A DNA stretch of 64,000 nt from Strigamia acuminata (GCA_949358305.1 OX442314.1:4402001-4466000), one strand, 5' to 3'. Positions 4,601-38,388 are shown, counted from the first letter of the stretch. Made by a program: numbers and translations. The notes: generated from the sequence alone by a model not told the origin.

Positions 4601-7600
4601 AACCCTCGAGTCGTTGCTCAATGTCGCCATCTTCTTCAGTGTCTGGCAATGGACGCCTTGACAAAACATCAGCCGCGCCTAACTCCTTGCCTGGAATGTG
4701 CTTGACCGTGTAGCAGTATCGCTGAAGTCGAAGTCGCATCCGTTGCAATTTCGGAGTGATCTCGTCAAGTTCCTTCGTCATCAAGATGGGTACCAACGGC
4801 TTGTGGTCAGTTTCCAGACAGACGGGAATTCCAATGATGAAGTTCTTGAACCTATCACATGCCCATACGAGAGCATATCCCTCTTTCTCTATCTGTGCCC
4901 AGTTCTTCTGACATTTCGTTAAGGTTTTACTCGCGTAGGCAATCGGCCTGAATTTGCCGTCATTTTGCTTTTGCTTAAGCACCGCGCCGACTCCATACAA
5001 AGATGCATCTGCTGTGATCACTGTCTCTCTCGTAGGATCGACCCACGCTAATGTTGGGGCCTTTGATAATTCCTCTTTAATGGCGTCAAACGCCGCTTCT
5101 TGTTGCGTCCCCCATCGGAATTCATTCTTGCCGCCCAATAGTTCATTCAACGGGTGTGCTTTTGTTGCCAAATTCGGGATGAATCTACCCAGGTAATTGA
5201 CTGAACCCAGTAGACTTCGTAATTCCGACACATTTTCGGGTTTGCCCATTTTTCTAATGGCAACTATTCGATCATCATCGACGTGAACTCCAGCTTGATT
5301 GATGATGTGTCCCAGGAATTTTATCTTGGTTTTCCCAAACTCGCATTTCGCTACGTTCAACGTTATTCCAGCTGCTAGCAAGCGTTGTGACGGTTTACAA
5401 TGGCTATAAATGCCTATTTTCTTAGAAAGAAGCGCTGTTGCGCCATTATCATGATATCTCGAAGATATTCTGTGTAAAACTGATAAATGTCTGGAATAAA
5501 GTTATTTATGATGTTTCAAATACAAAGATGTTCGTTTATTAAGAATAAACACTCATTCCTACTTGATATCAAAGGATTCCGGCCGAATCACGAAGAGTCG
5601 TCTGCTAAAACCGCATTTGTCAATGCGCAATGTTGCCACAAGATGGCGCGATTACGATTTAGCGGCAAATTCAAGATATGAATATAAAACATGTAAATAA
5701 ATATAAAACTATATTTACTAGAATGAAACGAAGCTTTGTGAACATTAATATAAAGATATATTAATGTCTTGTGATGTTAAATACAATGTAACTTCCATTT
5801 TCTGCGGGACAGGACATTTGGTGATCAATCGATCAACCAATAGATCTGATTGGTGGATCCATTTCCGGTCCTGGGTATCCAGTTCCGGTTGTGGTGAGAA
5901 TTAGCACATTGTTCCTCCGTATCCACTTCCGGTGATACGGGATTGGAGGGATTCGTGGAACCCATGTTCCAATTGGATAACTGGATTAATCCTTAATCCA
6001 GTCAGGTTATATAAACCCAAACAACCGGCCATTCTGCAGCTCTGTTTGATTATTTTCTGTTTGGTATTGTTACTTAAGAAATATGATTCGTTGTTCACGT
6101 AAAAAAACCTTTTGGTTCTTTGTTGATTTATTCGCAAAGAACCGTTGCATGATTCTACAGAATCATGCCACCGCCGGCAATTGAAGTCGAAGTGCTGGGA
6201 TCATTATGTTGCATAAATGTTACAGTTTACGGTTGCGACGCCGAAGGAGAACCCGCCGTTGTGCAATTCAGTATCCTCCGGACAGGACCAAGTTGTCTTT
6301 TTCGGTATGAACGTATTCCGTTACCACGAGTAGCATCGGTATTGTTGAGAATCGGTTCCTTCACCTGATGGTGCCAAAGCAGTCTGTTTTACAGTAACCA
6401 CGAGTAGCACCAAGTGTTTGGCAAGCTGATTCTCATGGTATTCGATGCCAAAGCAGTCGGTCTATTATTAGTACCGCGAGAGATAAAACTGCTGTGCGGA
6501 GCCGCGAGCTATCGACCCCTGTGTACGTGGTACCGTCAACCACTCGATGGACGACCGTGCTGCGACGCCGGGGACGCTTGATACCGTTCTGCATGGCAAG
6601 GCGTATATTCTAATCGATGGCAATTGTGTGTTGCGACGGGAAGCTTAATCTTCATTTTATTTATAACAGCAAAACTTAAACTCGACAACCAGTTGGACCA
6701 AAATCAAGTCAGAAGACTTAATCTCATATTGAACTCAATATAACCGATAAGTTGACGACAACTTATTCCCGAAATATCTAAATAAGAATTCACAACGATA
6801 TGAATTAAATATAATTCATAAGTGGAATATTGATAAGTAAATGAATACATTTACTTACACCAATATCCTCCCAAAGTTGTGGCGGTGCAGACAAAGTCAA
6901 CCGCAATGCTCAGATCATTCGATTTATCGACGTGCGATAGTTTACACAGCGAACCAAGGAAACCAGCGAAGCCGTATCGGACTCCAGGACACAGCCATCC
7001 GGCTTAAGATGACATCTATAATCAGGTCGAGCGATGGGGAAACCGCTCCCATATTCCAGACCCGTAGTGATATTATTCTAGGGCCAGTTGGCCAATTCTT
7101 TGTATAGTTTAATAGCTGATTTAACTTGCCAAATGTCGGCATTAGTCCTATGTATAATTTAGCCTTGATATTATTGTTTACCAACAATAAACTGTCTTGT
7201 ATTTATCTCGTATTGTATTCACTGTTTATTTATTGCGATCTCTTCCCGGTACCATTGTTAAATGGGAGTTGTGGTCGTCACCGTCACACGTGGAGGTCCC
7301 ACCGAGATTAGGTTGCAATTAAATTCGATTGAATTGCAACAGTGAATATTGGAGATAAATATTTAACTAAAAGATTTAAGTTAAAAATAGACAGATTAAA
7401 TTTTCAGTTTATATTTCCATGTGAAGAAGTTAAACTGATGAAATAGAAATACGTAGTAGATTTTCCTTCATTATTTTCGTTTGAAGATTTTAGGGATTTC
7501 AAAGACTACCACCTAATCTCACACGTGGAGGTCCCACCGAGATTAGGTTGCAATTAAATTCGATAGAATTGTAAAAGTGAATTTTGAGATAAATATTTAA

Positions 7601-10600
7601 CTAAAAGATTTAGTTAAAAAACAGACCAGTTTCAAACCATGTTTATTTTCTTGAGAAACACCAAAACTGTCCTTTAACTAGGAATTTCGGAAGTTATAGA
7701 CCTATCACACGATCACTGAAATAGGTTGCAAATTAATTCGATCGAATTGCAAAAGCGAATCTTGAATCCGATATTAACAAAAAAATTTTAGTTAAAACAG
7801 ACAAATAGATTTTCAGTTTATATTTTCATGTGAAAAGTTAAACTGACGAAATGGAAACGTTTAGTGAACTCTCTTTACTATTTTCGTTCGACAATTTAAG
7901 GAATACGAAGTATTTTAAATAAGAAATCAAAAAAAAGTTTCGAGTGAAATAAGAATACAGATATTTTTTTCGAAGTTTGTTTTATTTCGAAAAGCTAAAA
8001 ACATACAAGTTTAGAAGGCGGACTTCTTACGAATTTATCTTTCCACCTGAAAAGTTAAAACGAAGAAAACACCGCAACTATTTGGAAATATTTACAAGAA
8101 ATTAAGTTTCTTGTAACTGTACGTCGACACCGATAGCCAGCGACCACGCGCCATAGCAATACGCGTCGATCTCCGTATCAAACGCAGCAGGGAAGCTACT
8201 CAAACCTTCAACGCAAGGTGCGAACGAATGCTTGGAAATTATGGCGGACAACAGATAAAAGACAGCGGAGAAATGTTACAGAAGGTTCGTAGAGATTTAT
8301 TTAAGTGTCGCGAACTAATTTTTCCACTGCCATCGGTACCAAAGATAATTTAGTTGTTGGAGAAAAACAACACACTCCATTTCGCAGAAAAGATTTGCAA
8401 ATCGAAATGAATATTACCTTTATTTGAAGGAATTAACTATTTTCACAAAAAGGAAAATTTTTCCTTCGGGACAATGGAAATTAAGAAAATATAAAATGGC
8501 GGCGAATGAAGTTGCCGACCACGTAGAATAGTATTTTTTACATTGAAAGTTACGAATCACGATAAACGCTTTCCCTCGGAAAAGTAAAAGGATTTCATTC
8601 AATCTTTCCTTTCGGAAATTTAACAGTGTTTTAAGTTTCCAACGATATTTGGGTCTCCCAAATTTTGAGAATTTCTAAATGAAATTTAGCTGTTTGAAAA
8701 ACAACGAATATTTTTAGTAATCTAATCGGACATTTTCCCACATGATTTCTTAAAACCGGAATAACAAATCCATTTGTGGCTATGAACTTTGCCACATGAA
8801 ATATTTACGGAGCGAATATTTTTTGATTGGATTGAAGCTTTAAAATCAGATAGCTGATTTAAACGAAGAAAATAAGTTTCAAAGTAATTATTTTTCTTTC
8901 GGAAAAATCAAATAAATCACCGCTGATGAAAAGTTGTATTTTTCCATTCGAAAAAACTAAGAATTGCACAAGATTTATCTTCTATTTTGAACATAGATTT
9001 TATTCGGAAAAGGAAAGATTCTAGATACATTATTTTTCTCTAAAAATTAAGAATTTAGTCAATTTTCCTAAAGGTTAATGGAATGTCATCATATATTTCG
9101 TTCGTAATTTACGTGTTAAAGTTTAATCAGAAAAACGATTGAATATGTTTTATTTGCGATAAGTAAAAGAAAGGTTCTTTAAAAATGGAATTTCGATGCA
9201 AATCCCACAGTAAAGGGAATGTTATGTGTGAGCAATTAACGAAAAGTTGGAATAACTTCATTTTATTTCATTCAAAAGTAGTTGTGAAAAATCAATTTCA
9301 AATATTTTTCAAAGAAAAATTATTTTTATCGGAAAAAAGTAATTTACATGTCCTCGCGCGGACCGAGTAGTAAACTGCTTAATTGTGACATCGATACTGT
9401 TATTGTGTCACGTGTTATACGGAATTCCAAACCAGTGAATTACGAATTTTGGCGCGATAGGAATAGAAGTTTGACAGTGAAAGTTCTCCAGATTTGTCTT
9501 TTCATTTGAAAAGTTCAAATTGAGGAAATGCTGCAGCAGATGAAGGTATTTACGACAATTGAGATTTAAATATTCTTTCATTCAAAAGATAAAAGATCTC
9601 TGCAAAAACATCTCGTTATTAGAGATAAGGGGGACGAAAATTATTAAAACGAATAATCAAAGACACGTCCTTCGTAAATATCGCAAAGGAATAACTAATT
9701 GTGAAAACAATTGTCCGCTCAGGAAAAGTGGAATTTAGCTAGATATTTTCTTTCGAAAAATCAAAGCAATTGTCATCAAAAAAGAAAGATTTGATGAATA
9801 ATTTTTACCCAAAAGTCTAAAGGATTGTCGAATAGTTTTCTCCCGAAAAACAAGTACACATTTGTACCAATAACTTTATCGTTTAAAGTAAAATTTCGAA
9901 TATTTTCTTTTGGAAGATTAGAGAATTAGATAATTTTTCTCGCAAAACAAATTTAAAGAATTTTAACGAATTTTTATTTGTTAAAAAAATTTGTTAAAAA
10001 AGGGGGAGATGGATGGTGAAAATTTATTTTTTCACACTCGAAAAATGGAATTTAAACCCGAAAAAGTAAAGACTTGGTCAAATTATTCTTCCTATTGGAA
10101 ATGAATACACAATGTTGGGAATCGAAAATAGATTTCAATTACAAAGGAATGATTATTTGAACGATAATTGAATAAGAATAAGAAAAATTGAGAGTTTGAG
10201 AAAACTTTATTAAAACTGTGGTTGTAATGATATTACACACTAAACGGAATAATCAAAGAAAAATATTTTTTGAAGAAAAGTTATTTAATTATTTGGATTG
10301 GTAAAAATCCCAAAGTTCAAGAAGATTGAAGTAAGTTTATTTTATTTTCATTTGAAAAATACAATATTTTACGAATGTCTTCCCGAAGGAATTTTATTTT
10401 ATCGGTAAAATTGAATCTCGAAGGGAACGGACTTAGTAGAGAACTACTAAATAGATGTAACGTCCTTTATACCATTGGCCGACACTAACATCCGCCAATC
10501 AGAAGTTGGGAGATCTAGGGATCCCCAGCCCCCTGCTATTAAAGGAGGACCAGATCAGATACTGATCATTCGCATCCAGACCAGACCAGAAGACGTGTTC

Positions 10601-13600
10601 CAGAGTCATCTTGACCACGCCGTCCCGATTTCAGTCACGATTCGAATTTTGTGTGCCGTGTAACCTGCAAAAGCTAACACGTGTCAAACAAACGCGAAGT
10701 TTAATTTTATTTTGTCAAAAGTAAAGTTTAGAAGTGTTTCTTGTTGAAAAGTGTATTATATTCGTCTTCTTTATAAATTAAAGAATTAAAATCGTCAGAT
10801 TTTGAATTTTTTTATGGCTCAAAAACCATTGAATATGATCGATCCAAAAGGAAATAATAAGCAGACAAACTTAAATTTAAGTTCTGTACCACTTGGCGAT
10901 CAAACAGAAAAGATTCCCGATCATTTTACTCTGTATTGTAATCGTCATGGACTGGATAAAACCAAGTTTAAAAATATAATCGAAGCTTCAGACTATGTAA
11001 AAGCTAGGAACTGGCGAGATCGTACCCAATCTCAATCTTCACATCAAGATCCAGTACGGAATCCACAAACATACAGCCGAAACTTAGTGAATCAAGATTC
11101 TCATACTATGTTTCAAACATCCAGTAGGGGATCTAAGTTAGAAAAGTTTAAACCACCTAATTCGGTAGATAAGGGGGAAGAGAATTATAAACCTAATAAT
11201 TCTCGTCCAGAGAGTTCGTTAACTAACCAGTCGGTTGTTCAGAACAAATTAAAACTCGTTTACAATCGAGATCAGCTAATTTCAGTTCGATATGCTAATC
11301 CAGCTGAAGCACAACGATATGTGGCTAGCCTTAATCTGTCGATTAACCTACCGCTATCAAAAGAATTGGGAACCGTAAACAAAAGTTTTGGGCCACCAAT
11401 ATCAACGCAAAGGAAAGATATTCGGACTCCAAACAAACATTTGCAGTCAAATAACGTACAACAACGTGCCCGATCGCCGATCACAAACTCATGTTTGCGG
11501 ACGTATGATTTGTCTACCAAGAAGAGTCCCCAGCCAAGACAATTCTACCTAACGCCCATTTCAAATCGAAAAAAGGTCAAGCAAACTTTTCCCTTGAAAA
11601 AGTATTACCAACACGATAATGAGAATGATTTTAAACCTAAAAAAGAAAGTTTTTTGACTAACCCACGGGAGATCCGGTATCAATTCGAACAGTATTGTAA
11701 ACAATACCAGTTAAATTCAGCTGAATTTAAAAATATAAACGAAGCGCAACAATTCGTATTTCGAAATCAATACCGTAACCAACGACTAAAACCCGTCCCA
11801 GTCGTCAATCTGACGGAGATACAACAATTTGCGTCTGGAAAGCAACCCTGCAATATCCAGAATAATTCATCTCAACGAGAGGAATTAAGAACTTCAAAAA
11901 AGCGTTTTCGGTCACCAAGTCCAGCTGGTGATGAAGAAACTTCAAGTACAAACCAACATGTTCAAAAACTGACTGAAAACCCAGGTTTCCAATCATCAGT
12001 TCCACGACTTAGAGTCAAATATAGATCCCCTCGTTTGTTGCGGGATTTCACAATTCCAAATATGGGTCCTTTCCACGTATGGTTTTCCAATGAGGGTCCC
12101 ATTCATGTATGGTTTTCCAGAGATGACCTAAAACAAAAAGTTGGGTCGTCACGGTCATTTACACTGCCAAGTCAGTACACTGTATGTAACTGCCCAAAGA
12201 AAAAACGTCGAAAGAAATCAGTACAGCAGGCTGAGAGATCTCGGAAATTTGCAAATATGCGAGCTCAATATTTAGCAAAGAATCATGTTGATTAACATGA
12301 TATGATACACAAAGATTCCCCGATTATAGTGTAAACAGAAAATCCTCTTCTAAAAATCATGACCTCTCTTCTAAAGAAAAGGGGGACAAAATATAAAAGT
12401 TAGAATTAACAAAATTTTGAAAAGTAATGCTACATTATTAAGACAACTAGTTTAATTAAATTAGTCAATTGTACAAAGAATACCAAGTGACTCCGGTCAT
12501 GACAATTAAGGGGGACAATTATGATTTCTTAATTGTCAACTCTTATCATCTAAAAGCTATTTATTGTATATTTATAGCGATACATCTGACTAGGCATATG
12601 AAATAAATATTTTGTGATAACACAAATGATGATTTTATGTATGACGAAAGTTTCTTCAAAAAGAAGACTTGGAAATAAATTCTGGACTTGAATTTAGGCT
12701 ATTAGAAAAGATTATTTCGGCAGAAAATCAGAACTTAGATAATTCAAGTTAGTTTATGTAAGCTCAAATTCGAAATTGGAAGTCACGGTATCTCCAAGAT
12801 ACATCAAGTCCGAAAATAGCATTTATGCTAATTAGGAGAATAACGAAAACTCTATAAAATTTTATATAATTGTGTTATTAAGGGGGATGTGTGACGGTTT
12901 ACAATGGCTATAAATGCCTATTTTCTTAGAAAGAAGCGCTGTTGCGCCATTATCATGATATCTCGAAGATATTCTGTGTAAAACTGATAAATGTCTGGAA
13001 TAAAGTTATTTATGATGTTTCAAATACAAAGATGTTCGTTTATTAAGAATAAACACTCATTCCTACTTGATATCAAAGGATTCCGGCCGAATCACGAAGA
13101 GTCGTCTGCTAAAACCGCATTTGTCAATGCGCAATGTTGCCACAAGATGGCGCGATTACGATTTAGCGGCAAATTCAAGATATGAATATAAAACATGTAA
13201 ATAAATATAAAACTATATTTACTAGAATGAAACGAAGCTTTGTGAACATTAATATAAAGATATATTAATGTCTTGTGATGTTAAATACAATGTAACTTCC
13301 ATTTTCTGCGGGACAGGACATTTGGTGATCAATCGATCAACCAATAGATCTGATTGGTGGATCCATTTCCGGTCCTGGGTATCCAGTTCCGGTTGTGGTG
13401 AGAATTAGCACATTGTTCCTCCGTATCCACTTCCGGTGATACGGGATTGGAGGGATTCGTGGAACCCATGTTCCAATTGGATAACTGGATTAATCCTTAA
13501 TCCAGTCAGGTTATATAAACCCAAACAACCGGCCATTCTGCAGCTCTGTTTGATTATTTTCTGTTTGGTATTGTTACTTAAGAAATATGATTCGTTGTTC

Positions 13601-16600
13601 ACGTAAAAAAACCTTTTGGTTCTTTGTTGATTTATTCGCAAAGAACCGTTGCATGATTCTACAGAATCATGCCACCGCCGGCAATTGAAGTCGAAGTGCT
13701 GGGATCATTATGTTGCATAAATGTTACAGTTTACGGTTGCGACGCCGAAGGAGAACCCGCCGTTGTGCAATTCAGTATCCTCCGGACAGGACCAAGTTGT
13801 CTTTTTCGGTATGAACGTATTCCGTTACCACGAGTAGCATCGGTATTGTTGAGAATCGGTTCCTTCACCTGATGGTGCCAAAGCAGTCTGTTTTACAGTA
13901 ACCACGAGTAGCACCAAGTGTTTGGCAAGCTGATTCTCATGGTATTCGATGCCAAAGCAGTCGGTCTATTATTAGTACCGCGAGAGATAAAACTGCTGTG
14001 CGGAGCCGCGAGCTATCGACCCCTGTGTACGTGGTACCGTCAACCACTCGATGGACGACCGTGCTGCGACGCCGGGGACGCTTGATACCGTTCTGCATGG
14101 CAAGGCGTATATTCTAATCGATGGCAATTGTGTGTTGCGACGGGAAGCTTAATCTTCATTTTATTTATAACAGCAAAACTTAAACTCGACAACCAGTTGG
14201 ACCAAAATCAAGTCAGAAGACTTAATCTCATATTGAACTCAATATAACCGATAAGTTGACGACAACTTATTCCCGAAATATCTAAATAAGAATTCACAAC
14301 GATATGAATTAAATATAATTCATAAGTGGAATATTGATAAGTAAATGAATACATTTACTTACACCAATATCCTCCCAAAGTTGTGGCGGTGCAGACAAAG
14401 TCAACCGCAATGCTCAGATCATTCGATTTATCGACGTGCGATAGTTTACACAGCGAACCAAGGAAACCAGCGAAGCCGTATCGGACTCCAGGACACAGCC
14501 ATCCGGCTTAAGATGACATCTATAATCAGGTCGAGCGATGGGGAAACCGCTCCCATATTCCAGACCCGTAGTGATATTATTCTAGGGCCAGTTGGCCAAT
14601 TCTTTGTATAGTTTAATAGCTGATTTAACTTGCCAAATGTCGGCATTAGTCCTATGTATAATTTAGCCTTGATATTATTGTTTACCAACAATAAACTGTC
14701 TTGTATTTATCTCGTATTGTATTCACTGTTTATTTATTGCGATCTCTTCCCGGTACCATTGTTAAATGGGAGTTGTGGTCGTCACCGTCACAGCGTTGGA
14801 GTACTGCATGTAACCGCCTATCATGTTCCTCGATGGTGTCGCCATAAACCAATATGTCATCAAAGTTGACTTGCTTGCCTTCCAATCTTTCGAGAATTTC
14901 GCTCATCCTCTTCTGAAAGAATTCAGGTGCTGCATTTATGCCGAAAGGAAGCCTTTTGAACATGTACCGGCCAAATGGAGTGATGAATGTTGTCAACAGC
15001 CGTGATTCGGCATCCAACTGACACTGCCAAAAGCCATGATTGGCGTCGAGCTTTGAAAAATACTTCGCTTTTCCTAGTCGACCCAACACGTTCTCAGTAA
15101 CGGGCATTGGATGTGTTTCTCGCATTACGTAGCGATTAAGTCTCACATAATCCACGCACATGCAAATCGATCCGTCGGGCTTCGGTGCCAAAACCAGCCC
15201 AGAACACCAATCTGTTGATTCTTCTACCCGTTCTATTACTCCCAACAATACCATCTTGTCGAGGTTTGCTTTTATCTCGTTCAGTAGAAGAATCGGGACT
15301 CTTCGAGGTGTCATTAACGCGTATGGACTTGCATCAGGTTTCAGTCTAATTTTGTGCGGTATTTCAACGCGTCCCAGACCGCTGAATAGCTTCGGATAAG
15401 CTGCCTTCGGATCGAATGACATCTTCGGTGTCTTTTCCGTTTTCACCGCATCAACCCCGCAACGTCTGATGATGTTCAACTCTTCGCAGGTGTCGCCATC
15501 CAGTAACGGCTGCATTAAACCTCGAACGACGTAGATCGCTGTTAATTTCGACAGTCCTCGGTACTCGATTTTCTCCCATAACATTCCTAATGTTTTCATT
15601 TTTCCTTTGGTCGCATTGTGCAAGTTCAGCTCGGGTTTCCGTAATTTTCTATCGGAAAAATAGTCTCTGTAGACCTCTTCGGGAATACACGTTGTTTCGG
15701 CGCCGGAATCTGCCTTGAATCCAATTCTTGCATTCCTGATCTCCACCGACACATGCCATCTTCCCTGTCGACTGGCTACACCGTTGACTGATTCAACATA
15801 TGCGTCCGTCGCCTCGCCGACCCTTTGAACCGCTGCGCTCCGACATACCCTCGCATAATGACCTTTGCGATTACAGTTGTGGCATGTCAACTTTGCTGCT
15901 GGGCAGTCCTTCATCGAGTGGACTTTGCCGCCACATCTGCCGCAACTACTCGAGTTTTTCGATGCATTTTTCGGCTGCGTCTTGGGACCGCCGTCCGGTT
16001 TGCTCGATTTCCCGCTGTCGTCTGGTCATTCAGTCTTCTTTTTCCAGAAGTTGGATCGTTGCACCTTCTTGGAGTCAACTCGATCCACGGACCTATTGGT
16101 CGATGACGCTTCCAGCAATGTTTTCGACTGCGAATTGACCTGTTCAGACTGTTTCGTCATCTCGATTGCCTTCGCCAATGTCAAGTTGCTTTGAAGCTGA
16201 AGTTTCTTCGCCATCGCCTTGTCCCTGATGCCATTTACTATCTTGTCGCGGATAAACTCGTCATACAATGCATCAAATGTGCAGTGTTTGGCCGCTGTGT
16301 GTAATGCCGTGATGTATTCGTCCATCGTTTCACCGTCCTTTTGCTGGCGGTTGTAGAACATGGCTCGCTCATAAATCACGTTTGTTGTCGTAACAAATTT
16401 TGCCTCAAAAGCTGCCTTCACTTTTGCGTAATCGTGTTTGTCCGGATCCGCCAATTTGAATGAAGCGTAAATGTCATTTGCTGTGTCCCCCATGTGGTAA
16501 AGGAGTGAAGCCACTTGCTTTTTTCCCGGTTGGGTGTCTAAATCCACCATGGAGCGAAATAACTCAAATCTGGCAATCCATCTTGGCCAATCTGCCGCAT

Positions 16601-19600
16601 TTTTAAAGTCAAATTCGTCCGGTGGCTTGCAAATGCTGTGCTCCACTTTTGCCATCTTGTGAGGAATTTCTGCACTAATCACTGGATCAAATTTTAGGCT
16701 TTTAGACAATTTTTCGCTCAATTCTTCAATATTTCTTTCTAATTCCAACTTCTCTTCATCTATTTCCTCTTGGTCTGCCAGTGCTGACTCAATTTTGAGC
16801 GAAATAATGAGCAAATAATGTCAATTTTGATCAATCACGGGTAAACTGCTTGCTGCCCCTTGTAGTTGGCTTCCCACGATGCACTCCACACTTGTTTTTC
16901 TGCTATTTTCGATGCCTGGGTGCTTGTTTGCCACTTCAGTTGGGGTTTGCACAGTCCTTCCCATCAATATTAATCACACTGACCAGTTTTTTAGGTGTTT
17001 CACCGCTGCCACCATGTATTGTTTGTTGCTTAAATCAGGAGGCTGATGAAATCATGTGAGACATCCATTGTGTTAAAAACAACAACTATCGCCACCTTTT
17101 AATGACACTAATAACTACTAATACAAGAACGCCATCTGGCGTGATAAATACACAACATATCACACAAAAAGTAAAATAATTTTCTCTCCACTGTGTTTAG
17201 ATAAGAATTCTAGTAAATCGTTTGTTGGAAAACTACTAACAGTGGATTTTGAGAAATTTTATCAAGACATCTGCCCAGGATCTATGTACATGGTAATATA
17301 AACACAATTACAATCAAATAGCAACGAGAGAAGCAACATCCTTTTTTTTCACTGATAGATTAGGCTATCATTATATAATTTTGGAAAAATTTACTTCCAA
17401 TTACTTAAATCCAGTAGTACCACATTGAAAATAAATTTGAGTTATAACAAAGTAACATTTAAAGTCGATTGAAATTAAACGACTATTCTAAGTCTTCATT
17501 ATATTTCAGTACATGTTTCTCAATTCATCGAAACGCCCGTGCTCCAGTGGAAATGAATACAGAGATTGCTACCAAAAGTGCTTGTTCAAAAGATTAGAAA
17601 ACAACCTAACATGCAGGTAAAAGCAATTTGTTCCTAACTAATCCTAAAAATGACATTTTATGACAAATTTGTTTAATTTACTAACAAATGTTACTATAAA
17701 GGTTTTTGCTAAATCAAACAACCAAAGCCCTGCATTTTTGCTCAAAATCAAAGCCACTGAACAAAACCATTATAATTTCATTAAATTCTTTTTTTTTTCT
17801 TAAGATTTCCTTTTCTGAAGATGAATTTACCTCTCTGTGAATGTTCAGATGCTATACACGATCAATACAGCATAGTCAATAAATTAATTGATACCACAGA
17901 CCCAATTACTACTTGTGCTTGTCGACCTCCATGTCAGCAAATGGTTTTTACACCCTACACAGACTCCGGCAAAGCAGATGATAAAAAAATAATGTCTTTG
18001 ACTTTAGCACTAACCAATGATAAAGTCACCGTGTATCAAGAGCGGTTCACTTACGACGTTATTGCTTTACTATCTGATTTAGGCGGCAATTTGGGACTAT
18101 TTCTCGGCCTATCGTTACTTTCATTACCTGAAATCACTTGGTATTTATATTTTGTTGTGACAACTAAGCGCAAAATTACCAAACTTTATAAGATTCGACG
18201 TCTCTATGAGGAATCCAAGAAAGAAGTCACTGAGAGTGAAAAGAAGATCAAAACTAACGGAGTTTTAAAAAAGTTTAAGTTGCTGCTGGTTGTAATTAGT
18301 GCAGGATTCACTCTATACTTGTTGCTAAGTCGTTTAAACTACTATTTCGAAGAACCTATATCAAAAATGATTACCATAGATCAACGGCGCTACATAGAGT
18401 TCCCATCCGTGACACTCTGTGGTGAAAATCGCAGTGATGAGATGGAACAAGCCAGATTCCAGTTACTTAAACAACCAAACAAAACTTGCAATGACATATC
18501 ACCGTGGCAATTGGTCAACAACAATTTGTCATTAGAAGATATTTGGAAGACCCTAAATATCCATCGAACAATGAGTGTTAAGGACAGGTTCAGCAAGGTA
18601 TACATAGATTTAAAAAGCATACAATACAAAGTGGATAAAATATATATTTACAGTATTATTATGGATACACAACAATACTAAACATAGCAACGAGTCTCGT
18701 CCTACTTCCATTTGGTTATTGTTCACAAGTTAACACAGGTAATTCACATGGAAACCTTATCAGTTTAACAGAATATGACTACACTTATAACAACTCCTAT
18801 TGGTTGGCATATTTATTGTGTATATTGAAATATGACTAGTGCTTGTGACAAACAGATATGCAACCCAGACAAATTTATTGATATCCCTACAACATGTACT
18901 GAGAATTGCTGCCAGAGTTAACATTAGAGACATTGAACAAATCACCTTTTAGTTCTGTTTATCAATGATCTTACCAATTAATCATCTCCTTGAAAACGTT
19001 TTATAACGAATCGCAATATAAGGAATTATCCATATAACGAATTGTGAAAAATGACTTGGTTGGCCATCCATAGAACACCATGTTTAATATTTTCGATATT
19101 ACGAATTTAAATATAACGAATTATTCGTTATAACAAACAAGTTTTATGGACACTATCATACCCACAAGCTCTTGTTATAACATATTTTCAAAACTGATCA
19201 CATGACTCACAACATCCTATGCCCATGTTTAGAACACATTTAAAAAAATAAAAAAAATTTTATTTCAAAATGGCTGCAAAACGAAAGGAAATTTTGATTG
19301 AGGACAAGTTGAACATTTTTAATGCCTTTGACAATGGCAAGAAGCCATCAATTGAAGCAGTTGAGTTTAATTTGTCCTGTTTTACAATTTCAACAATAAT
19401 TAACAAGAATTTATGAATAAATAATGTTGTATACCGGTATGATAAAATTTAATTTTTTTCATCTAATTTGTTTTAATGAACTCTCGTTAAAACAAACTGA
19501 TTTTTCGTCTCTCTTGCGATTCGTTATAAAGAGTTTTGACTGTATACTGAATTGGAGCCCATATCACTAATAGAATACCATGCATACAATTATTTTTTTT

Positions 19601-22600
19601 TTTTTTAGAAAAAACGAACCATATAACAGCAGATGTTACAATTGCTCTTACAAAACTTTTTCCTCCAGAAGTTTGTGAACAACATCTATGGGTAATATCA
19701 AAATAAACTTATTTTAGAACTAATAGTTAATATCAAGCAAACAAAAATGTGCGTGGATCTCAATCAGTATGCGAGGAAATCTAGATTTTGGAATTAGAAC
19801 ATCCGCATTCTATTAAAGGACTTGCGGTAAATCTAAATGTTAGACTAGCCCAAATATTCTGTTGCAAAAGCGGTATTACAAGCAGGTAAGATAATATCAC
19901 GAGTCGACTGCTTCGGTATTTCCCATTTGTCAAGAATCGATGAGCGATGTTATTTCATACATTTAGCTTATGCTTTCAAATTCTGATTGTATAATAATTT
20001 AACCAAATTCTTTTTAAATCCAATTACAAAAATTTTCAGTTTTTTCTAAATAACCCAGAAGAGGAAGTCAATATTTTAGCACCCATGTCTATGGCCTATG
20101 GTTCTATGACTATATTTGCTCTTCGTATATTTAAGGTAACATGCGGGTGCATTCAAAGTTTTAATTTTTACAGTCGTGGACAAAAAAAACTTTGCTTCAG
20201 TTTATCTACCGGGTGGCATAAAAATACATTGAGATTCAATGACATCAATCTTGACCTGATCTCTCGACTTGCTCTAATATCAGTATTAAAAGATAAACCG
20301 AGCAAATAATGATAGGCAAACTTTATACACCTAAACTGAAAGGAAGTCGTTTTTTGTCCACGACTATACGACTGCTTTTCATAAGTTTGGAAAGGTGACA
20401 AAAATTATTGTGTTATAAACTTCAGGAGTTAAAAAATTAATAATAAATAAATTTGATGAACTTTTTCATTGATGAGTAAACAGGTCGATTCATATACATC
20501 AAATAAAGCCAAATACGCGATTCCAGTAGTGAATATTTTTTTCACAAAATCGTTCTTAGCAAAAACTATCTGTTTCAAAAGTTTGGAAAGATGGAAAATT
20601 TGTTTCATAAGTTTGGAAAGTTTGCTGAAATTAGCCAATAACAATGAAGTGACACAGGTTTATGCAACGTGACATTACTCCTGTATATAAGGAATCACCA
20701 GACACGGGAATTTTAAAAAACTTTCTTGTCAACATGGGAAGAACTGGCGCAACTGAAATTTCAAAATGCAACAGATTCAAACCCAATTATCTCAACAACC
20801 TGACCACGGATTCTTTTTTTTCATAAAGCAAACTTTCTCCTCTACTTGACGAAAGTCGTCTATCGTTTGCCTTTTGAAAAAAAAGAATCCGTGGTCAGGT
20901 TGTTGTGATAATTGGGTTTGAATCTGTTGCACCAAATCCGTGGTTTGAAATTTCAGTTGCACCACATTCAAACGGTCGCCACCGCTTGACAACCAAGAGG
21001 GGTCGAGCCTTGTCCTTTTCAGGATTTGTAGAGGAGAATCCCCTCTATCGTTGGCTTTTTGAAACAAAAGAATCCGTGGTCAGGTTGTTGAGATAATTGG
21101 GTTTGAATCTGTTGCATTTTGAAATTTCAGTTGCGCCAGTTCTTCCCATGTTGACAAGAAAGTTTTTTTTAAAATTCCCGTGTCTGGTGATTCCTTATAT
21201 ACAGGAGTAATGTCACGTTGCATAAACCTGTGTCACTTCATTGTTATTGGCTAATTTCAGCAAACTTTCCAAAATTATGAAACAAATTTTCCATCTTTCC
21301 AAACTTTTGAAACAGATAGTTTTTGCAAAGAACGATTTTGTGAAAAAAATATTCGCTACTGGAATCGCGTATTTGGCTTTATTTGATGTATATGAATCGA
21401 CCTGTTTACTCATCAATGAAAAAGTTCATCAAATTTATTTATTATTAATTTTTGAACTCCTGAAGTTTATAACACAATAATTTTTGTCACCTTTCCAAAC
21501 TTATGAAAAGCAGTCGTATAGTCACGGGACGGCCCCTAGAAAGTTGTCCGGTTCTGACAAGTTAAGCCAGCAAACTCACTAGTCTAGACAAATGTCACAT
21601 ATCCTGACTAGATAGAACAATAAAAAAAAGTTTCCAAATTCTTCTGATGAATTGCGGGTTAGTCATCAGAATAATGATAATACATTTGTCTAGTTGTGCC
21701 CTATCAAGCTTGTTTGGACAGTGCTGTGTACTGACCACACAGGATGCATTCCATATTAAACTATGATTATTTTATCAAATAGACCATTCGAAGAAATACA
21801 AAACTTAATCCATGTGAACAAAATAAAACTGCTTATTTTATGTGTCAAACTGCTTGCATGCAAAACAATTTATTTCACAGGATCAATTGCAGGTATTGTT
21901 GTAGTTCTTCTAGCAAATGCTGATAATATTTGAGTGTAATCTAGTAATCATTCCTTCTTTCCATCAATACTTTTATAAAATAAAAATACCACCTTTAAAG
22001 GAGTTGCGACATGAAAATACAACAGGACTTTATATGATGTATTTTTATACATACTAGTAGTTATCAAATTTTTGGTCAAAAATTTGATAACTACAACAAT
22101 TTTGTTGATTTTAAGGGAATGCCCTTTGCGCTTCACTGCTTTGCTTCAAAATCAGGGAAACAACAAAATTCTGCCAATGACGTCATTTAAGGTGTATCCA
22201 ACAATGACAGTATTTGGAATGATATCAGTATGACGTCACACAGAAATAAAAACACACAATTGTTGAAAAATGTACATAAAACCTAATGCTAAAACTTGGA
22301 AGTATATTTTGTGAAAATTAAATATATAAAACCAACAAATTGAAAAAAAAATGGCAATTTTTTTTTATAAATTTACTTAAAAAATTTAAAATCATTCTAT
22401 TATAGAGTATAAAATTTGCTGAAGATTACAGAAGCCCCACTTCATCAATCACACAAAAAAATATACGATTCCTTTTCAATTTTTAGCCACAATATCGAAC
22501 TTTTTGGTTTTTTCTGTATGCAGCTATTGAAATCTATTCTGCCTGTGACGTCATATCCGGTTTCTTGGAGTTTTTCAGAGGTGGCGGGGCTGAGCATTTT

Positions 22601-23828
22601 TAATTCTAGTTTGTAGTAAAACTATAACACTTAAAATTGTGAAAAATTGAGAAACATTTTGTTTAACAATACTTAATCATTTTTTACAATTATAAAAAAA
22701 AAAAACTTTTATGTTGCAACTCTTTTAAAGCCTTGTTCACACTTACGTGTACGCTGCAGATTCACAGCTCAAAATGACGTCACTTCCTGTGAAGATGCGG
22801 TTTTTCTGCAGATTGTAAAAATAGGAATATTTTCTATTATTCTGTGCAATTTTTTCCTAAATTTACCAGCAGCCAATTACAGCTCAAACAATTCCATCTT
22901 GTGAGATTGTTTAGCAAAAACGTCTTTTTGAGCTGCGTATACACACGTTGGAACCAGCCTTTACATTAAGTAATCGGGACGTACAAGTATATGCAATATG
23001 TCCAGACTCCTGATTATGTAATGTAAAGGCTACTTTTGCTATTCATCAACCTCTCCAGAAGTCATAAAACCATTAACAGTTTCATGTTTGCACGTGACGT
23101 CATTCCCATTGAATAACATGTTATTCAATGGGAATCTTGGCGCCAAGTCTCTGTCGATTCATATACGGGGTTTTCAGGGCTTGAAAGTGTGTCTCAATGG
23201 CAGCCGTTAAATCTGCAAGGGTGGACGTCGTTTCCGCCTTTGGGTAGACCAATCTTTTCAACATTCCCATTGAATAACATGTAATTCAATGGGAATGGGA
23301 ATGACGTCACGTACAAACACGAAACGAGTTTTGCATACGTTTTAGACTTATTGAATACACCTAGTGCAAAACCAAACAAACACCCAAAACTCAACTTTTT
23401 GCAGGCAGTTTGTATTTGTGAATTCAGTTCAATTAAACTATAGTGCTTGTTTCAGGTTGCCGTACATGTCATCATCAAGTATACCATCTTGCAACACGAT
23501 GGAAGACATTACTCGTGCCCATTCCCAGTATTTTAACAATTACAATTCCAATCAAAAAACTTGCAAATGTAAACAACCCTGTAAAAATACTTATTACCAA
23601 GCTATCGAGCATGAAACTAAATTCAAATATAATCAATACACATTTATAAAGCTTCGTCCAGTTAACAGTTTCGACGAGACCACAATAGACGACCTAAATT
23701 ATCCAATATCTCGCTTGTTAAGTGATGTCGGCAGCATTGTAGGATTATCATTGGGAATGTCAATACTTTCTTTGCACATTTATCTTTTAAACATTTATAA
23801 TTGGTTTCGCCTCAAACTGAGTGATTAA
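1625..23828 (+). CDS. DEG/ENaC channel gene 1 with two tandem ENaC domains. Exons: 1625-2077, 2149-2221, 17201-17292, 17359-17451, 17510-17616, 17805-18597, 18654-18738, 19609-19691, unresolved exon(s) ~19720-19885, 23456-23828
   Basis: TM1 + YLSYPT..LPYITICS; SPFGMCSAF; Cys-rich thumb (CACRPPC); TM2 LLSDLGGNLGLFLGLS; second TM1 + FPSVTLC; LPFGYC; CKCKQPC; second TM2 LLSDVGSIVGLSLGMS; GT-AG borders give consistent phases. Confidence 0.85.
2250..2812. mobile_element. Non-autonomous TIR element (MITE) in intron 2 of gene 1
   Basis: ~46-bp TIR CAAGGGGAGAGCACTAATAAGCTATTTTAAAATTTTAAAATTAATT; TGA on both flanks (possible 3-bp TSD). Confidence 0.85.
2421..2488 (-). pseudogene. Degenerate tRNA-Ser-derived sequence inside the MITE
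   Basis: Minus strand GTAGTGGTGGCCCAGTGGTTAAGGCAATGGACTAGGAATC...CAGGTTCAAATCCTG resembles metazoan tRNA-Ser(AGA); variable arm and 3' acceptor strand lost. Confidence 0.7.
3072..5385 (-). pseudogene. pol: Element A RT 3' part, RNase H and integrase; in-frame TGA at 4419-4421
   Basis: ADASLYGVGA, ETDHKPL, H-H..C..C, SDNG, SNGFAE; removing B restores HAVLQRLLAAGITLN. Confidence 0.92.
5386..7288 (+). repeat. 5' LTR of B
   Basis: Direct repeat at offset 7504; TATATAAA at ~6009; AATAAA at ~7187. Confidence 0.95.
10814..12295 (+). CDS. Element B ORF (~493 aa), basic and hydrophilic, function unknown
   Basis: Only long ORF in B's AT-rich interior; duplicated F..YC....L....FKNI.EA motif; C-terminal KKKRRKK. 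Confidence 0.7.
   Translation: MAQKPLNMIDPKGNNKQTNLNLSSVPLGDQTEKIPDHFTLYCNRHGLDKTKFKNIIEASDYVKARNWRDRTQSQSSHQDPVRNPQTYSRNLVNQDSHTMFQTSSRGSKLEKFKPPNSVDKGEENYKPNNSRPESSLTNQSVVQNKLKLVYNRDQLISVRYANPAEAQRYVASLNLSINLPLSKELGTVNKSFGPPISTQRKDIRTPNKHLQSNNVQQRARSPITNSCLRTYDLSTKKSPQPRQFYLTPISNRKKVKQTFPLKKYYQHDNENDFKPKKESFLTNPREIRYQFEQYCKQYQLNSAEFKNINEAQQFVFRNQYRNQRLKPVPVVNLTEIQQFASGKQPCNIQNNSSQREELRTSKKRFRSPSPAGDEETSSTNQHVQKLTENPGFQSSVPRLRVKYRSPRLLRDFTIPNMGPFHVWFSNEGPIHVWFSRDDLKQKVGSSRSFTLPSQYTVCNCPKKKRRKKSVQQAERSRKFANMRAQYLAKNHVD
12890..14792 (+). repeat. 3' LTR of B
   Basis: Copy of 5386-7288; no difference seen. Confidence 0.95.
14793..16814 (-). pseudogene. gag-pol: Element A gag-protease-RT, 5' part; in-frame TGA at 16026-16028
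   Basis: Mag-type gag (WPRWIARF..R.Q..GET..Y); knuckles CGRCGGKVHSMKDC and CHNCNRKGHYARVC; protease FKADSGA; RT RLPFGI, NFDD. Confidence 0.9.
17805..18597 (+). CDS. Gene 1 junction exon: domain-1 thumb and TM2, basic linker, domain-2 TM1 and FPSVTLC
   Basis: Single open frame (ORF 17821-18681) containing both GGNLGLFLGLS and YYFEEP...FPSVTLCG. Confidence 0.9.
18990..19542 (+). mobile_element. pogo/Tigger-like deletion derivative with transposase N-terminus (19270-19416)
   Basis: MAAKRKEILIEDKLNI..FNLSCFTISTII resembles the CENP-B/Tigger HTH; inverted TTATAACGAATCGCAA near both ends; right end GACTG-TA; left end degraded. Confidence 0.7.
20171..20366. mobile_element. Tc1/mariner-like MITE
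   Basis: TA-CAGTCGTGGACAAAAA ... TTTTTGTCCACGACTA-TA. Confidence 0.75.
20369..21516. mobile_element. Foldback element with ~450-bp inverted arms
   Basis: 20369-~20818 is a near-perfect reverse complement of ~21066-21516 (mirror ORFs in the track); TA flanks. Confidence 0.9.
21999..22724. mobile_element. TTAA-flanked MITE (Kolobok-like ends)
   Basis: TTAA-AGGAGTTGCGACATGAAA ... TTTTATGTTGCAACTCTT-TTAA. Confidence 0.65.
23079..23325. mobile_element. Small MITE with palindromic subterminal repeats
   Basis: GTTTCATGTTTGCACGTGACGTCATTCCC / GGGAATGACGTCACGTACAAACACGAAAC; two ATTCCCATTGAATAACATGTWATTCAATGGGAAT palindromes. Confidence 0.7.
23456..23828 (+). CDS. Gene 1 terminal exon (domain-2 thumb and TM2)
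   Basis: TTTCAG acceptor; RLPYM..C..CKCKQPC..YPISRLLSDVGSIVGLSLGMS..stop. Confidence 0.85.
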
Positions 23829-28478: not shown

Positions 28479-30611
28479 TATGGTCAAAAAATTCCTATTG
28501 TAGTCGAATACAATTTGGCCGTCGCCAATTTGGTCCCCGCCCGAAGTAAGAACATAACAAATTATAATAAATAGTACCAAATAATGGGGTGGCGCTATTG
28601 TTGCGAAAATAGAAATCGCGAATTTCAGTAATCGCTAATTTCGCGATTGCTGAATTTAAAGAATTGTATCGCAAACTGGCACATTCGCGAATCCAAGAAT
28701 CGCGAAAGTCACGTTTAAATGAAAAAAATGTTACTACACATGAAAGCAATTTGTATAATATGTCAGCTCACAATCTATTAAAGTAATAAGTTAAATATTA
28801 ATCTCAACAGCTTCGTACCACATCGATAACTGCACTTAAAAGAAACAATGGAGAGAGAGAATTTAAATCGACCAGTAAGCCGACTTCAACAAACGAGAAG
28901 GCGAGAACTGCTTCAACTTGTTCACATAACTTTGTCGAAGCAACAGAGGACTCCGGCTTTCGTCAAATGTTTGACAAATATCTCGGAGAAGAAAAGAAAT
29001 ATCAAGATTTTGCTTTTTATGTTACTAATTATTAACTTAGCAGCTTGTGCTTATCAAACAGTAGATCGGGTCTTGTATTTTATGGACGAACCCACAGCAG
29101 TTGATGCACACATGAGTGAAACAACGCATGGTTCATTTCCCTATGTGTATTTATATCCATATACTACGCAAGAATTTAACGATTTCATTTTCAAGAAATC
29201 AAAAAAATCGGACTACAAAGATCAATGTAAATTTGGTCGAATGCATCCAGTATATTCAGTATTTAATTTAAGTGATATTCTACAATATTCTACCCTACAT
29301 AGTTACATAACTGATGCCTACTTCAAAACAGTAAATCATTTTCATTTTTGCTCGTAAGCAAATTAGAAAAATTTAATCGAATGTGGAAAAAAAATATATT
29401 TGCAGCCCAAAATGCGCATTAACCTTACAATTGCAAATTATGAGACTGTGAGTTATGCTACTGCACAAGTTACCAGTCGTAAGTCAACAATCTTTCCTGT
29501 TTCTTTATTTTTACAAGTTCCTTTTTCCCATAGCAATTTCGTTTCCATATGGGAATGCTGCTTATAAGATGCTGCGATCCGGGTTATTATCGCACTTATT
29601 TCTAATAAATAAGCACGAAACCGCAGGTGAATGCTAAAATAGACTTACAATCAGCGGCCTTAAACTTGTCTAGGGTTAAGTTTATTAAGTAGGAAAATAA
29701 AGACACAATTTTATGATAAAAATCACACAAAAGGTTTTATTCGTTATAAATTACAATGACTAGTATTATTATGAATTATATATTTATTAATTAAAATAAT
29801 AATATCACAGATGCGACAAGTCGCGAGAATGAGCGGGAAAACAATGGAGGGCTTGCAACGACTGTTGCAAGCTACAAAGCGCGGCGAATACGCTTGACAA
29901 CCAAAGTTGTTAGGAAAATGGCTTCCGCTATTTTCCTCGTCTTCACTCACACGTACGATGATCCTCGGATGATGGTTCACGGTGAGTCTTCCACACGAAG
30001 TACGACGGCACGGGGCGGTGGTTCACGTTCGGGCAGGCGTCCGTTCACGTCCGATGGCGGTGGCAGCAGTTCGCGCTACTGCGACGGCGATGGTTCACGC
30101 GACACGGGAAACTTCTCGTTACGATAGCTGGAATTAGCGACGGCTAATTCAAGCTGAATTGCTGGCTTTGTGCGTTTGTTGCACAAAGATAGCAGGTGAA
30201 ACTGAAGAACACGAGTCCACTATCAATACTTTTCTTTCAGGAGCAAAAGCAGTGATGCTTGTGGTTGTGTGTTATTTTTCAGAGTCCCGATTTGAGCCAA
30301 GGCGCGAGCCCAGCACGCTTCAATATTGCGCAGAAAACCTGCGCACTTAGCTCAAATGGGTGCAACTAGTGGTTATTACACCATATTGCACCATAACGGC
30401 TAATAACCGTTTTCACCCCGGACAACCTGGGGTGATATGTGCCTAGAGAGGATTTCTCCCCTCGGTCACATGATCTGACTTGGCGTGTGCCACAGTCAAA
30501 TTAATTAGAAGACAATTAATTTTATCTTCTAAGTTGGTGAATATTTTGAGATCACCACACATCCCCCCATTTAAGACGAATCTTACATGGAGAAAAATGA
30601 ACGAATCCGAT

Positions 30612-33259: not shown

Positions 33260-33429
33260 TCGTTTTCTTTTTCGCGTCGAAAAAGAAATTCTTTCGGCTA
33301 GAAAGAATTAATAAAGTATATTAAATATATTTATCGAATTTTTCTATCAGAAAAACTACTTACAGTTCGTAGGTTCGCAAAAAACTGTCGTGTTATAACG
33401 CACTCGACGCATCCACTTTGGAAACTACT

Positions 33430-33550
33430 GAGAAAGTGGCTAAGTTCGTTGATTGGAGAAACGAACTTGTTTCGGTGACACCGAATGACGTCACAAATTA
33501 TAACGCATTGTGAACGTTGTCGTTCGAGTGTGAACTACGAATGACGTCAC
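33430..33550 (-). promoter_or_regulatory. Putative internal promoter of C ORF3
   Basis: Two TGACGTCA (CRE-type) sites at 33486 and 33542, a CCAAT, and ACTTAGCCAC, between the pol stop and the 5'UTR intron. Confidence 0.4.
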
Positions 33551-33601
33551 GAGATTGCTCTCTCGGATCTTTTGGGTAAACCCAAAAGGTGAAAGTCAAC
33601 G

Positions 33602-36600: not shown

Positions 36601-37198
36601 GCATTTGAGGTGGGTTGTACTTAGTATGTGTATTGATGGGGCGAAAATCAATGCACAAGCGTGGGTCGTTTCCTGGTCGCATGACTAGGACTGGCCGCAT
36701 TCCGTAATCGCCTTCAGCTTTGACGACTACGCCTTTGTCAATCATGTCTTGACAAAGTTGTCTGATTATTTCCCTTTTTTGAGGGTTTATGCTCTTAAAG
36801 GGGACACGGATGGGTTTCTCCGTGTCAAGCTCAATTTTGTGCTTAACCAGGTGTGTTTTACCTGGATCTTTAGAAATAATCCTTTTATGTTTGGATAACA
36901 TCTTTTCTAATAATTTGGATTGCTCCAAATTTAAGTTAGCTTCTTCGACTAACTTTTGGATGAAATTCTCTTCATCAATTTTGCCTTGAGTTACACTTGC
37001 AGCGTAAGCTTTTGCAAAGGTCATAAATGAGGAATCGGGTTCCTCTATTTTCTCCAAATAACGATCCAGCAACGCTTGTGGAATGTAGGGTAAATCTGCA
37101 TCCACAGGTTGCGTGAAATTCCAAGACATCGTCTGTGGATTAGGTTGGATTTTTAATTTATTCATAAAATCGCAACCCAATAGTACCATTGGATACTT
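33602..37198 (-). pseudogene. pol: Element C pol 3' part: RT, RNase H, integrase (open frame but separated from gag-PR by D)
   Basis: YLDD, HTDASRQGLGA, TDHQAL, H..GH..CQGC, SDNG, NPVER, GPY. Confidence 0.93.
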
Positions 37199-38388
37199 TG
37201 TCACGGTCCTGACTTTAGACAGTAATAATTTTCAAAATTTTAAGCGCATTTTGCGCCTTTCCTTTAAATTTTCCCCAATCATATTGAGAAATTGTTCTAG
37301 TTTCCCTAAATTATTTTATTTTTCCCAAATCTAAATTTATTATTTTATTTTATATTATTTTCCTTATTTTTGATATTTATCTTTAATTTGGCCTGGTTTT
37401 AATCACCCCATCCAGACAATTCATGAGAATTCTGCAATAAGTTGATATAATCGCGCTCTAAATTTACATATTTCACCCCTGGTCGCCTGTTTTCTGCCCA
37501 GTCCCCATTGGGAATTGACTTGGCCTTTGACATGTGATCAGAGGTGACTTGTTCTGTCGGGACATTTTTGACAGAGAGAATAATTTTCGCCTTCGACTAG
37601 ACAACAGCTCCTGTCTCAACTAGGAGATTTCCAAGTGCGATTATGTTGCGTCTCAACGCATACGGTCACATTGCAGCCCGAATTCTCATGTTAGTCTAAC
37701 TAACCACAACATTTATTATTTGCCCATTATTTGCGTACGAATTACTGGAAAAAGGCGTATTCGACGGTCTCAATTCGTCAATACATTTTATGCCACGACT
37801 GTGACTTCCTCCTCAGCCTAGACATTTTGAACTCATACTCGTCTCAATTGCGTATTCATTTCATTATCAACGGTTCGACGACGTTGTCTGCGGTTTGGTA
37901 CCTGTTTGCGCGTTCACCCAACGTTTGCGCGTGTTCAGGAGAAGAAACATACTCTTCGTAAGTACGCCTAGCATATGACGACATTTTCCCTAGTGAAGAG
38001 CGATATTTTGGTCTTAAATTCGAAGTATCAACGTTCGCCATTTTGTACGGCGCCCGAATTGAATCCTGCACCCATAAAATACAGATTTCACGAATAGACG
38101 CTGTCTTAACCTAGCTACCACCCCCGGCAAAGTTTTAAGAGTTGCAGCGCCTGCGAACCTAAATTTTCTGGTTATTACAATCCCTGGAAATTCTTAAATT
38201 TCCGAAACCATTGTTAAAGAGTCGACTACGACGTGACAATCTTGGCGAGCTAGACAGGATTCAACTCGAAACGTGTTCTAAGAGAACACAAACCACCATT
38301 TTCTTCAGTGACGACTACGCAAGTATAGGTCGTTATATTTATTTAATTAATTACTTATTTTTGCCGGCACACATATTATTGTTTCAAC

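Follow-up and report, generated by a model that had tools for sequence, protein, structure and literature searches.

The window, a 64,000-nucleotide stretch of the Strigamia acuminata genome, contains a DEG/ENaC gene with two domains (gene A), a broken tandem paralogue of it (gene B), the start of a third DEG/ENaC gene (gene C) and nested LTR retroelements. Their coordinates are given in Table 1. Gene A was modelled in 11 exons from an ATG at 1625 to a stop codon at 23828, with the Strigamia maritima match as guide for exon placement. The model encodes 785 aa with no internal stop, all ten introns are GT-AG, and 20 of the 20 splice sites are canonical. Two further stretches were tried as exons and rejected. 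The alignment to S. maritima splices exon 2 straight to 17201, which rules out 2931-3001 as an exon broken by a retroelement, and 19718-19886 was needed neither for the frame nor for homology.

Table 1. Coordinates of the features in the window.
Feature	Position	Strand	Evidence
Gene A exon 1: start codon, N-terminus, protomer 1 TM1, LPYITIC	1625..2077	+	ORF; Pfam ASC 5-97, E 3e-13
Gene A exon 2, palm G-x-C-x-x-F motif	2149..2221	+	GT-AG, phase 1; T1JEH2 alignment
Ty3/gypsy-type LTR retroelement in gene A intron 2	3001..17166	-	152-bp LTRs 99.3% alike, 5-bp target duplication
Nested LTR element	5386..14792		1.9-kb LTRs 99.9% alike, 4-bp target duplication
Gene A exon 3	17201..17292	+	T1JEH2 match
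Gene A exon 4	17359..17451	+	T1JEH2 match
Gene A exon 5, thumb cysteines of protomer 1	17510..17616	+	Covered by contigs; too short for a Pfam match
Gene A exon 6, the junction exon: end of ectodomain 1, TM2, linker, protomer 2 TM1, start of ectodomain 2	17805..18597	+	
Protomer 1 TM2, canonical D-x-G-G-N ... G-L-S	18058..18156	+	91% identity to T1JEH2, motif table
Linker, basic, about 38 aa, predicted cytoplasmic	18157..18270	+	No in-frame stop, Met or His-Gly motif
Protomer 2 TM1	18271..18345	+	KD peak 2.07; 70% identity to T1JEH2
Gene A exon 7, protomer 2 G-x-C motif	18654..18738	+	Intron position and phase equal to exon 2
Gene A exon 8	19609..19691	+	Model and intron comparison
Gene A exon 9	20040..20135	+	Model and intron comparison
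Gene A exon 10, thumb cysteines of protomer 2	21783..21892	+	Too short for a Pfam match
Gene A exon 11: end of ectodomain 2, TM2 D-V-G-S ... G-M-S, stop	23456..23828	+	Pfam ASC E 1.3e-7; KD peak 1.78
Gene B, tandem paralogue, equal 11-exon two-protomer plan, pseudogene	28848..59022	+	
Gene B junction exon (TM2 - linker - TM1)	55950..56730	+	Pfam ASC, 2 stretches
Gene C exon 1, start of third DEG/ENaC gene	62909..63322	+	Pfam ASC E 3e-11; tree support 100

The two domains of gene A meet within the junction exon. An earlier note had read this as one exon encoding a TM2 with its GxS filter, a basic linker, a new TM1 and FPSVTLC, and both the open frame and the Pfam ASC matches agreed with that reading. 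The exon is flanked by an AG acceptor before 17805 and a GT donor after 18597, and its 264 full codons are all open, an outcome expected by chance at about 1e-9 at the local composition. Pfam ASC matched it in two stretches, the best of which covers profile positions 340-453 of 455, the TM2 end (E 2.5e-23). The G-L-S of protomer 1 lies at 18106-18114 and the FPSVTLC of protomer 2 at 18400-18420; 12 of the 33 linker residues scored are K or R. Since the linker taken alone would be open by chance in about 3% of cases, comparative evidence was required for it.

Part of that evidence comes from contigs. Two of them (18122-18299 and 18129-18306) cross the linker from end to end, show 3 and 15 differences, and extend 28-36 letters past each linker end, where the bar of the search tool is 31 letters. 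The contigs derive from two public runs of unrecorded kind that belong to one study and may be where the window itself came from. They cover introns and exons alike and represent several paralogues approximately 5-12% apart. One paralogue contig in run X2 (one contig only) has a 2-base deletion in the linker at 18259; judged from its frame, the deletion would stop that paralogue after protomer 1, making it a pseudogene or a derived single-domain subunit. At 17610-17803, a contig found in both runs at single-copy-like depth lacks the 188-base intron and runs from exon 5 directly into the junction exon; it is probably a paralogue that has lost this intron.

Protomer 1 begins 15 kb upstream, at the ATG, and the intervening intron is full of nested LTR retroelements. 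At the other end, the second ectodomain and TM2 that the earlier note had placed after the junction, ending at 23828, were found there, the last exon carrying thumb cysteines, the TM2, a G-M-S and the stop codon. Pfam ASC (PF00858) scored 50 bits on exon 1, 83.3 on the junction exon and 31.5 on the last exon, against a cut-off of 23.6. Two DEG/ENaC domains had been expected in the spliced protein, and a home-built single-domain profile, made from 65 relatives, gave two full-length matches to it: residues 22-391 (profile 8-388 of 389; E 1e-66) and 412-779 (profile 18-378; E 3e-57), compared to 0 of 20 shuffles. This profile is not an independent library, because its relatives were themselves matches to the junction exon. 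The top four Kyte-Doolittle-type (KD) hydropathy peaks lie at residues 40-58, 358-376, 432-450 and 755-773 (KD 1.56-2.07); a threshold of 1.6 recovers two of these four helices, and ranking by peak recovers all four. With the peaks at the expected helices and two full-length domain matches, the proposed four-TM, two-protomer chain stood up. The 95 open codons before the ATG at 1625 and the 55 before gene C contain no TM2 motif, by eye or by tblastn, and thus give no sign of a third domain upstream.

Each half of gene A follows the plan of TM1, Cys-rich ectodomain and TM2, and thumb cysteines are present in both. The TM2 filter motif G-x-S is G-L-S in the first half and G-M-S in the second. The His-Gly motif before TM1 is represented by T-G in the first half and is absent from the second. 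A canonical subunit has one protomer and two TM helices per polypeptide, whereas gene A has two protomers and four TM helices in one frame. The two halves are 20% identical to each other. Nevertheless, in each of the four halves that make up genes A and B, five introns lie at the same profile columns (approximately 136, 165, 199, 232 and 269) and in the same phases (0, 1, 0, 0 and 2). Equal columns and phases in halves this diverged would be the footprint of a duplicated and fused six-exon gene.

Intron 2 of gene A is 14,979 bases long. The Ty3/gypsy-type element that it contains has Pfam matches to gag, a zinc knuckle and RT, and is interrupted by the nested element. A 501-aa ORF inside the latter had no Pfam match, and this element is perhaps non-autonomous. 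The near-identical LTRs and the target duplications indicate that both insertions are recent. A diverged solo LTR of the kind found in the nested element lies between genes A and B, at about 26630-28480, and gene A introns contain fold-back or MITE-like inverted repeats at 20362-21523 and 2245-2817 (359-bp arms 99% alike and 51-bp arms 98% alike, respectively).

Gene B has a junction exon of its own, 27% identical to that of gene A over 240 aa (E 6e-23). Its coding exon 3 is split by 25.5 kb of nested LTR retroelements (29570-55091; 4-bp target duplication), the outer element having 990-bp LTRs with 2 mismatches and the inner one lying at 37199-50314. The last exon has a frameshift near 58752, where a contig (58716-58811) agrees with the window with 0 differences and 0 gaps, and the last TM2 is cut by an early stop. 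A word-index search with the gene B junction exon gave no match among 440 candidates. The remainder of gene C lies beyond the end of the window or was not found. Between genes B and C, minus-strand remnants at 60237-60412 and 61102-61190 are 78-80% identical to exons 9 and 8 of a gene-A-like copy.

Relatives of the junction exon were found in S. maritima, where the matching proteins are uncharacterised predictions and in many cases truncated. The closest model, T1JEH2, is 57% identical to the exon over 99% of its length, and T1IL99 is 22% identical over 96%. Over 690 alignment columns gene A and T1JEH2 are 52% identical. Identity is 60% in the N-terminus and TM1 encoded by exon 1, 91% in the first TM2, 70% in the second TM1, and 58% and 53% in the ectodomains, and falls to 32% in the linker. 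As both halves are kept and the linker has diverged, the linker would act as a spacer. T1JEH2 lacks a counterpart of gene A exon 5. Among the best 150 of 456 representative matches, 32 have the TM2-to-TM1 junction: 17 named S. maritima models, nine without a name look-up, and six others identified as from a midge, two shrimps, an ostracod, a leech and one Logan cluster. One of the S. maritima models, T1IZ33, has an impossible zero-length linker. Single-domain relatives also occur among the S. maritima models, e.g. T1IGW0, T1INH1 and T1J5J9. A word-index search with the family alignment found only P0009 among 7988 scored, and a search of the ESM Atlas returned single-domain ASC clusters only.

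Phylogenetic analyses sorted the halves by position. The first halves of this old family formed one clade with 15 of 15 included (IQ-TREE SH-aLRT 97; FastTree 0.95). The second halves formed one clade in FastTree (0.94, all except one long row), and this grouping was not rejected in the AU test (p-AU 0.75). The free IQ-TREE search placed the second half of gene A apart from the rest of the second halves, a position that was weakly supported. A sister relationship of the two gene A halves was rejected (p-AU 2e-6). The first tree left out domain fragments shorter than 150 aa, and the second comprised 62 chosen rows in quick mode with no mixture model. Tandem duplicates fused by a gene predictor would sort by gene, and the first-half clade together with the rejection of the gene A halves as sisters argues that the fusion is old and no predictor artefact. 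The earlier note had drawn the latter conclusion from the single exon; it is borne out by the second junction exon in gene B, by the conserved junction of the S. maritima relative, and by the position-specific clades with their matching intron positions. The two-domain architecture of the family is almost certainly real. The shared introns suggest an origin by tandem duplication of an ancestral six-exon gene, after which copy 1 would have been fused in frame, through its last exon, to the first coding exon of copy 2. One single-domain S. maritima model, T1IWH1 (P0039), nests among the second halves in IQ-TREE; from its placement it may stem from a gene model that was split in two, or be a second half turned independent.

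A younger clade (support 100) unites gene C with one-, two- and three-domain models of S. maritima whose domains are close kin; its members include P0006 (T1IU28), P0007 (T1IZL2), P0008 and P0002. This separate clade suggests a second, possibly independent, fusion in Strigamia.

The two pore helices of the old family are unequal. In the first-half TM2 the D is present in 23 of 23 sequences, GG in 22 of 23, the filter G in 23 of 23 and the S in 22 of 23; in the second-half TM2 only one of eight has GG, and the downstream Glu is absent from all eight. Judged by these residues, the first-half TM2 is strictly conserved and the second-half TM2 relaxed. Linkers of the old family are approximately 28-56 residues long and K/R-rich. 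The two longest (P0012 and P0019) keep a P-G-L motif like that of the segment before TM1 in single-domain relatives; most other members, including gene A, have lost it.

The fold was tested on a complete paralogue, T1JD34 (791 aa), instead of gene A. AlphaFold2 predicted two complete protomers (pLDDT 71.9, pTM 0.66), of which residues 51-381 match the whole PDPNaC1 chain (Z 20.1) and residues 423-774 the whole BRTNaC1 chain (Z 20.6, 323 residues aligned). The linker was modelled at low confidence (pLDDT below 50 at 396-422) as a helix that extends TM2, and the Atlas model of T1JD34 has a pTM of only 0.53. The AlphaFold2 pTM exceeds what would be expected for two freely moving halves, and the predicted packing may echo that of known trimers. 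Prediction of a 2+1 complex of T1JD34 46-780 with the ectodomain of T1IGW0 scored 0.01 against a mark of 0.34, in a run that used no alignments and a T1IGW0 model without the thumb exon.

The comparison with known systems draws on passages of PMC9974506, PMC12714832, PMC10329638, PMC8438182, PMC5203786, PMC7067487 and PMC4244043. The heat-activated Scolopendra channel BRTNaC1 (PDB 8ymr; PMC9974506) was both the best PDB sequence match of the S. maritima orthologue (E 5e-11) and the best fold match of the paralogue model, with a compact ectodomain of like size. It differs from gene A in being, as described in its passages, a single-domain protein of 431 aa with two TM helices and seven exons, and identity is approximately 19%. 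The proton-gated Scolopendra channel PDPNaC1 (PDB 9jf7), characterised in the passages of PMC12714832 as a broad cation channel, lacks the canonical His-Gly, as do both gene A halves, and carries a further Gly four residues ahead of the one in G-x-S, again as in both halves; it differs in being a 421-aa homotrimer of separate chains. The His-Gly motif is present in 43% of insect PPKs according to the passages of PMC8438182, and since PDPNaC1 and most insect PPKs are without it, its absence from gene A is no bar to DEG/ENaC membership. Kinship with BRTNaC1 and PDPNaC1 suggests that gene A probably encodes a non-selective cation channel with a sensory role, in the detection of protons, heat or chemicals.

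In those passages DEG/ENaC/ASIC subunits are trimerising two-helix chains, and concatemers are laboratory constructs. Engineered ASIC concatemers, in which the C-terminus is joined to the next N-terminus, conduct in oocytes as covalently linked trimers (passages of PMC10329638). They are artificial and consist of three full-length subunits with 19-residue spacers; gene A, unlike them, is natural, old and two-protomer, with tails trimmed to about 38 residues. The main text of PMC8438182, as far as its passages extend, assigns 3-5 predicted TM segments to 8% of insect PPKs and does not use the words 'fused' or 'tandem'; the main text of the S. maritima genome paper has no occurrence of ENaC, pickpocket or degenerin. 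No natural DEG/ENaC concatemer was found in the open literature, as covered by listings and the starts of abstracts. From its sequence, the two-protomer chain is apparently a real, undescribed architectural variant of a well-studied family.

Several families of channels, namely the two-pore channels, K2P and the four-domain Nav/Cav channels, have fused the subunits of an oligomeric pore in one chain, after which the repeats diverged. These derive from tetramers, whose symmetry fits two or four repeats equally well. A trimer does not split evenly into pairs, so a natural two-protomer DEG/ENaC chain faces a symmetry mismatch of 2 into 3. It would have to be resolved by recruiting a partner subunit, by leaving one protomer dangling or by linking trimers, and each of these would be new for DEG/ENaC.

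The gene A product is probably made as one chain, and given this, a 2+1 assembly is moderately probable. Our overall reading, held with slightly better than even confidence, is that gene A joins two complete DEG/ENaC domains via its junction exon, and that the four-helix chain likely fills two neighbouring positions of a trimer, with a separate single-domain subunit likely in the third. The basic cytoplasmic linker would have arisen from the C-tail of protomer 1 joined to the N-tail of protomer 2, with both chain ends on the same side of the membrane as the linker and the four helices in two adjacent positions. The third position would most simply be filled by a putative single-domain paralogue, for which the S. 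maritima models are candidates. The linker would fix the order and the 1:1 ratio of two unlike protomers, and the canonical pore helix of protomer 1 combined with a relaxed protomer 2 without the His-Gly loop before TM1 could create an asymmetric, ENaC-like heteromeric pore. Vertebrate ENaC, present in PDB titles as beta-gamma dimers and beta-beta-gamma trimers, offers a functional analogy for 2+1 with its fixed order of unlike subunits and unequal pore helices, but it is encoded by separate genes, has no covalent linker and is 10-13% identical. Counting against this overall reading are the low-confidence linker of the T1JD34 model, the 14 kb of recent retroelements in intron 2 of gene A, and the dead neighbour gene B.

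A real and intact tandem chain might instead assemble with itself, three chains giving two tethered trimers, a trimer with a protomer left out or an array of linked trimers. We consider this unlikely, yet it accounts for several observations: all structural modules and the G-x-S are kept in both halves, the first half, with its fully canonical TM2, could by itself line a homotrimeric pore, and tandem models outnumber the single-domain S. maritima relatives among the best 150 of 456 matches. BRTNaC1 and PDPNaC1 are also described as trimeric or homotrimeric in the passages of PMC9974506 and PMC12714832. A linker of 33-38 residues could in principle reach a second trimer. Two tethered homotrimers, however, need all three linkers to span tens of angstroms, whereas AlphaFold2 draws the linker, at low confidence, as a helix continuing TM2; the three-domain relatives described below further suggest that the linker joins neighbours inside one trimer. 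Improbable, in our judgement, is that the family is real and gene A itself is silent or decaying like gene B, which is disrupted three ways. The 14-kb nested LTR insertion in intron 2 and the inverted exon remnants near gene C would fit such a fate. Of the listed differences between gene A exons and contigs, moreover, 11 of 13 change the amino acid, in a biased subset of 40 of 245 rows, and this excess hints at relaxed selection on gene A. Gene A nonetheless retains 785 codons without a stop or frameshift, canonical splice sites throughout, and its cysteines and pore motifs, and the insertions are intronic and recent.

That the chain ends as two ordinary single-domain subunits, through linker cleavage, an internal promoter or early polyadenylation, seems very improbable. 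The linker is rich in K/R pairs, and the paralogue contig with the 2-base linker deletion would also suit a split. The linker is, however, predicted to be cytoplasmic, and is 32% identical to the S. maritima orthologue compared to 53-60% for the ectodomains and N-terminus, with no conserved sequence motif. A cytoplasmic linker is out of reach of furin-type convertases. There is no Met from TM2 to the end of the next TM1 (the first is at residue 461), and the gene A linker contains no AATAAA or ATTAAA and no pyrimidine-rich acceptor. On these features cleavage of the linker looks the weakest of the assembly options. Some junctions in the databases are likely predictor fusions, e.g. one from Helobdella, in which the linker is 174 aa long and the halves are sisters, and possibly one from Polypedilum. 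For gene A, a chance merger of two adjacent genes by assembly or annotation is scarcely credible: the junction lies within one exon in two paralogues that are 27% identical there, contigs span it with few (3) or more (15) differences, it is conserved in a second species, and the 20%-identical halves group by position and not by gene.

Chains with three domains were found in Strigamia, Halocaridina (1244 aa), a Penaeus cluster, a Logan cluster and Polypedilum. The Penaeus cluster consists of a RefSeq model and five Logan contigs of 3.4-4.0 kb and has a reduced middle domain; the Logan cluster holds three 1268-aa proteins on contigs of approximately 4.5 kb. Being barely longer than their ORFs, the Logan contigs look like transcripts. 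Three DEG/ENaC domains or TM2 motifs per chain were observed in P0036, P0073/P0154, P0126, P0031, P0055, P0064, P0091, P0142 and P0148, and in several unlabelled three-domain chains the middle domain has shrunk to about 180 aa. AlphaFold2 modelled the shrimp protein P0073 at pLDDT 47 and pTM 0.34, with 11 sequences in the alignment. Some of the three-domain chains have very short linkers, and such chains fit neighbouring positions within one trimer. It is possible, from their domain content, that they are natural single-chain pseudo-trimers.

Taken across these groups, we think it fairly probable that arthropods repeatedly hard-wired the stoichiometry of DEG/ENaC channels: in an old, expanded centipede family of two-protomer chains that needs a borrowed third subunit, in a younger clade of two- and three-protomer chains, and in independent three-protomer chains of shrimps. 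If true, trimeric channels would have their own equivalent of the transition from Kv subunits to the two-domain TPC and the four-domain Nav/Cav channels. Two-protomer chains would provide natural reagents for asking about subunit order, which protomers require a canonical pore helix, and whether the re-entrant loop before TM1 is needed at all three positions. Surveys of DEG/ENaC genes in which two TM segments are expected may mistake a large family of centipede receptors for fused gene models, and if the proposal is true, the two- and three-protomer chains would constitute an undescribed class of sensory receptors.
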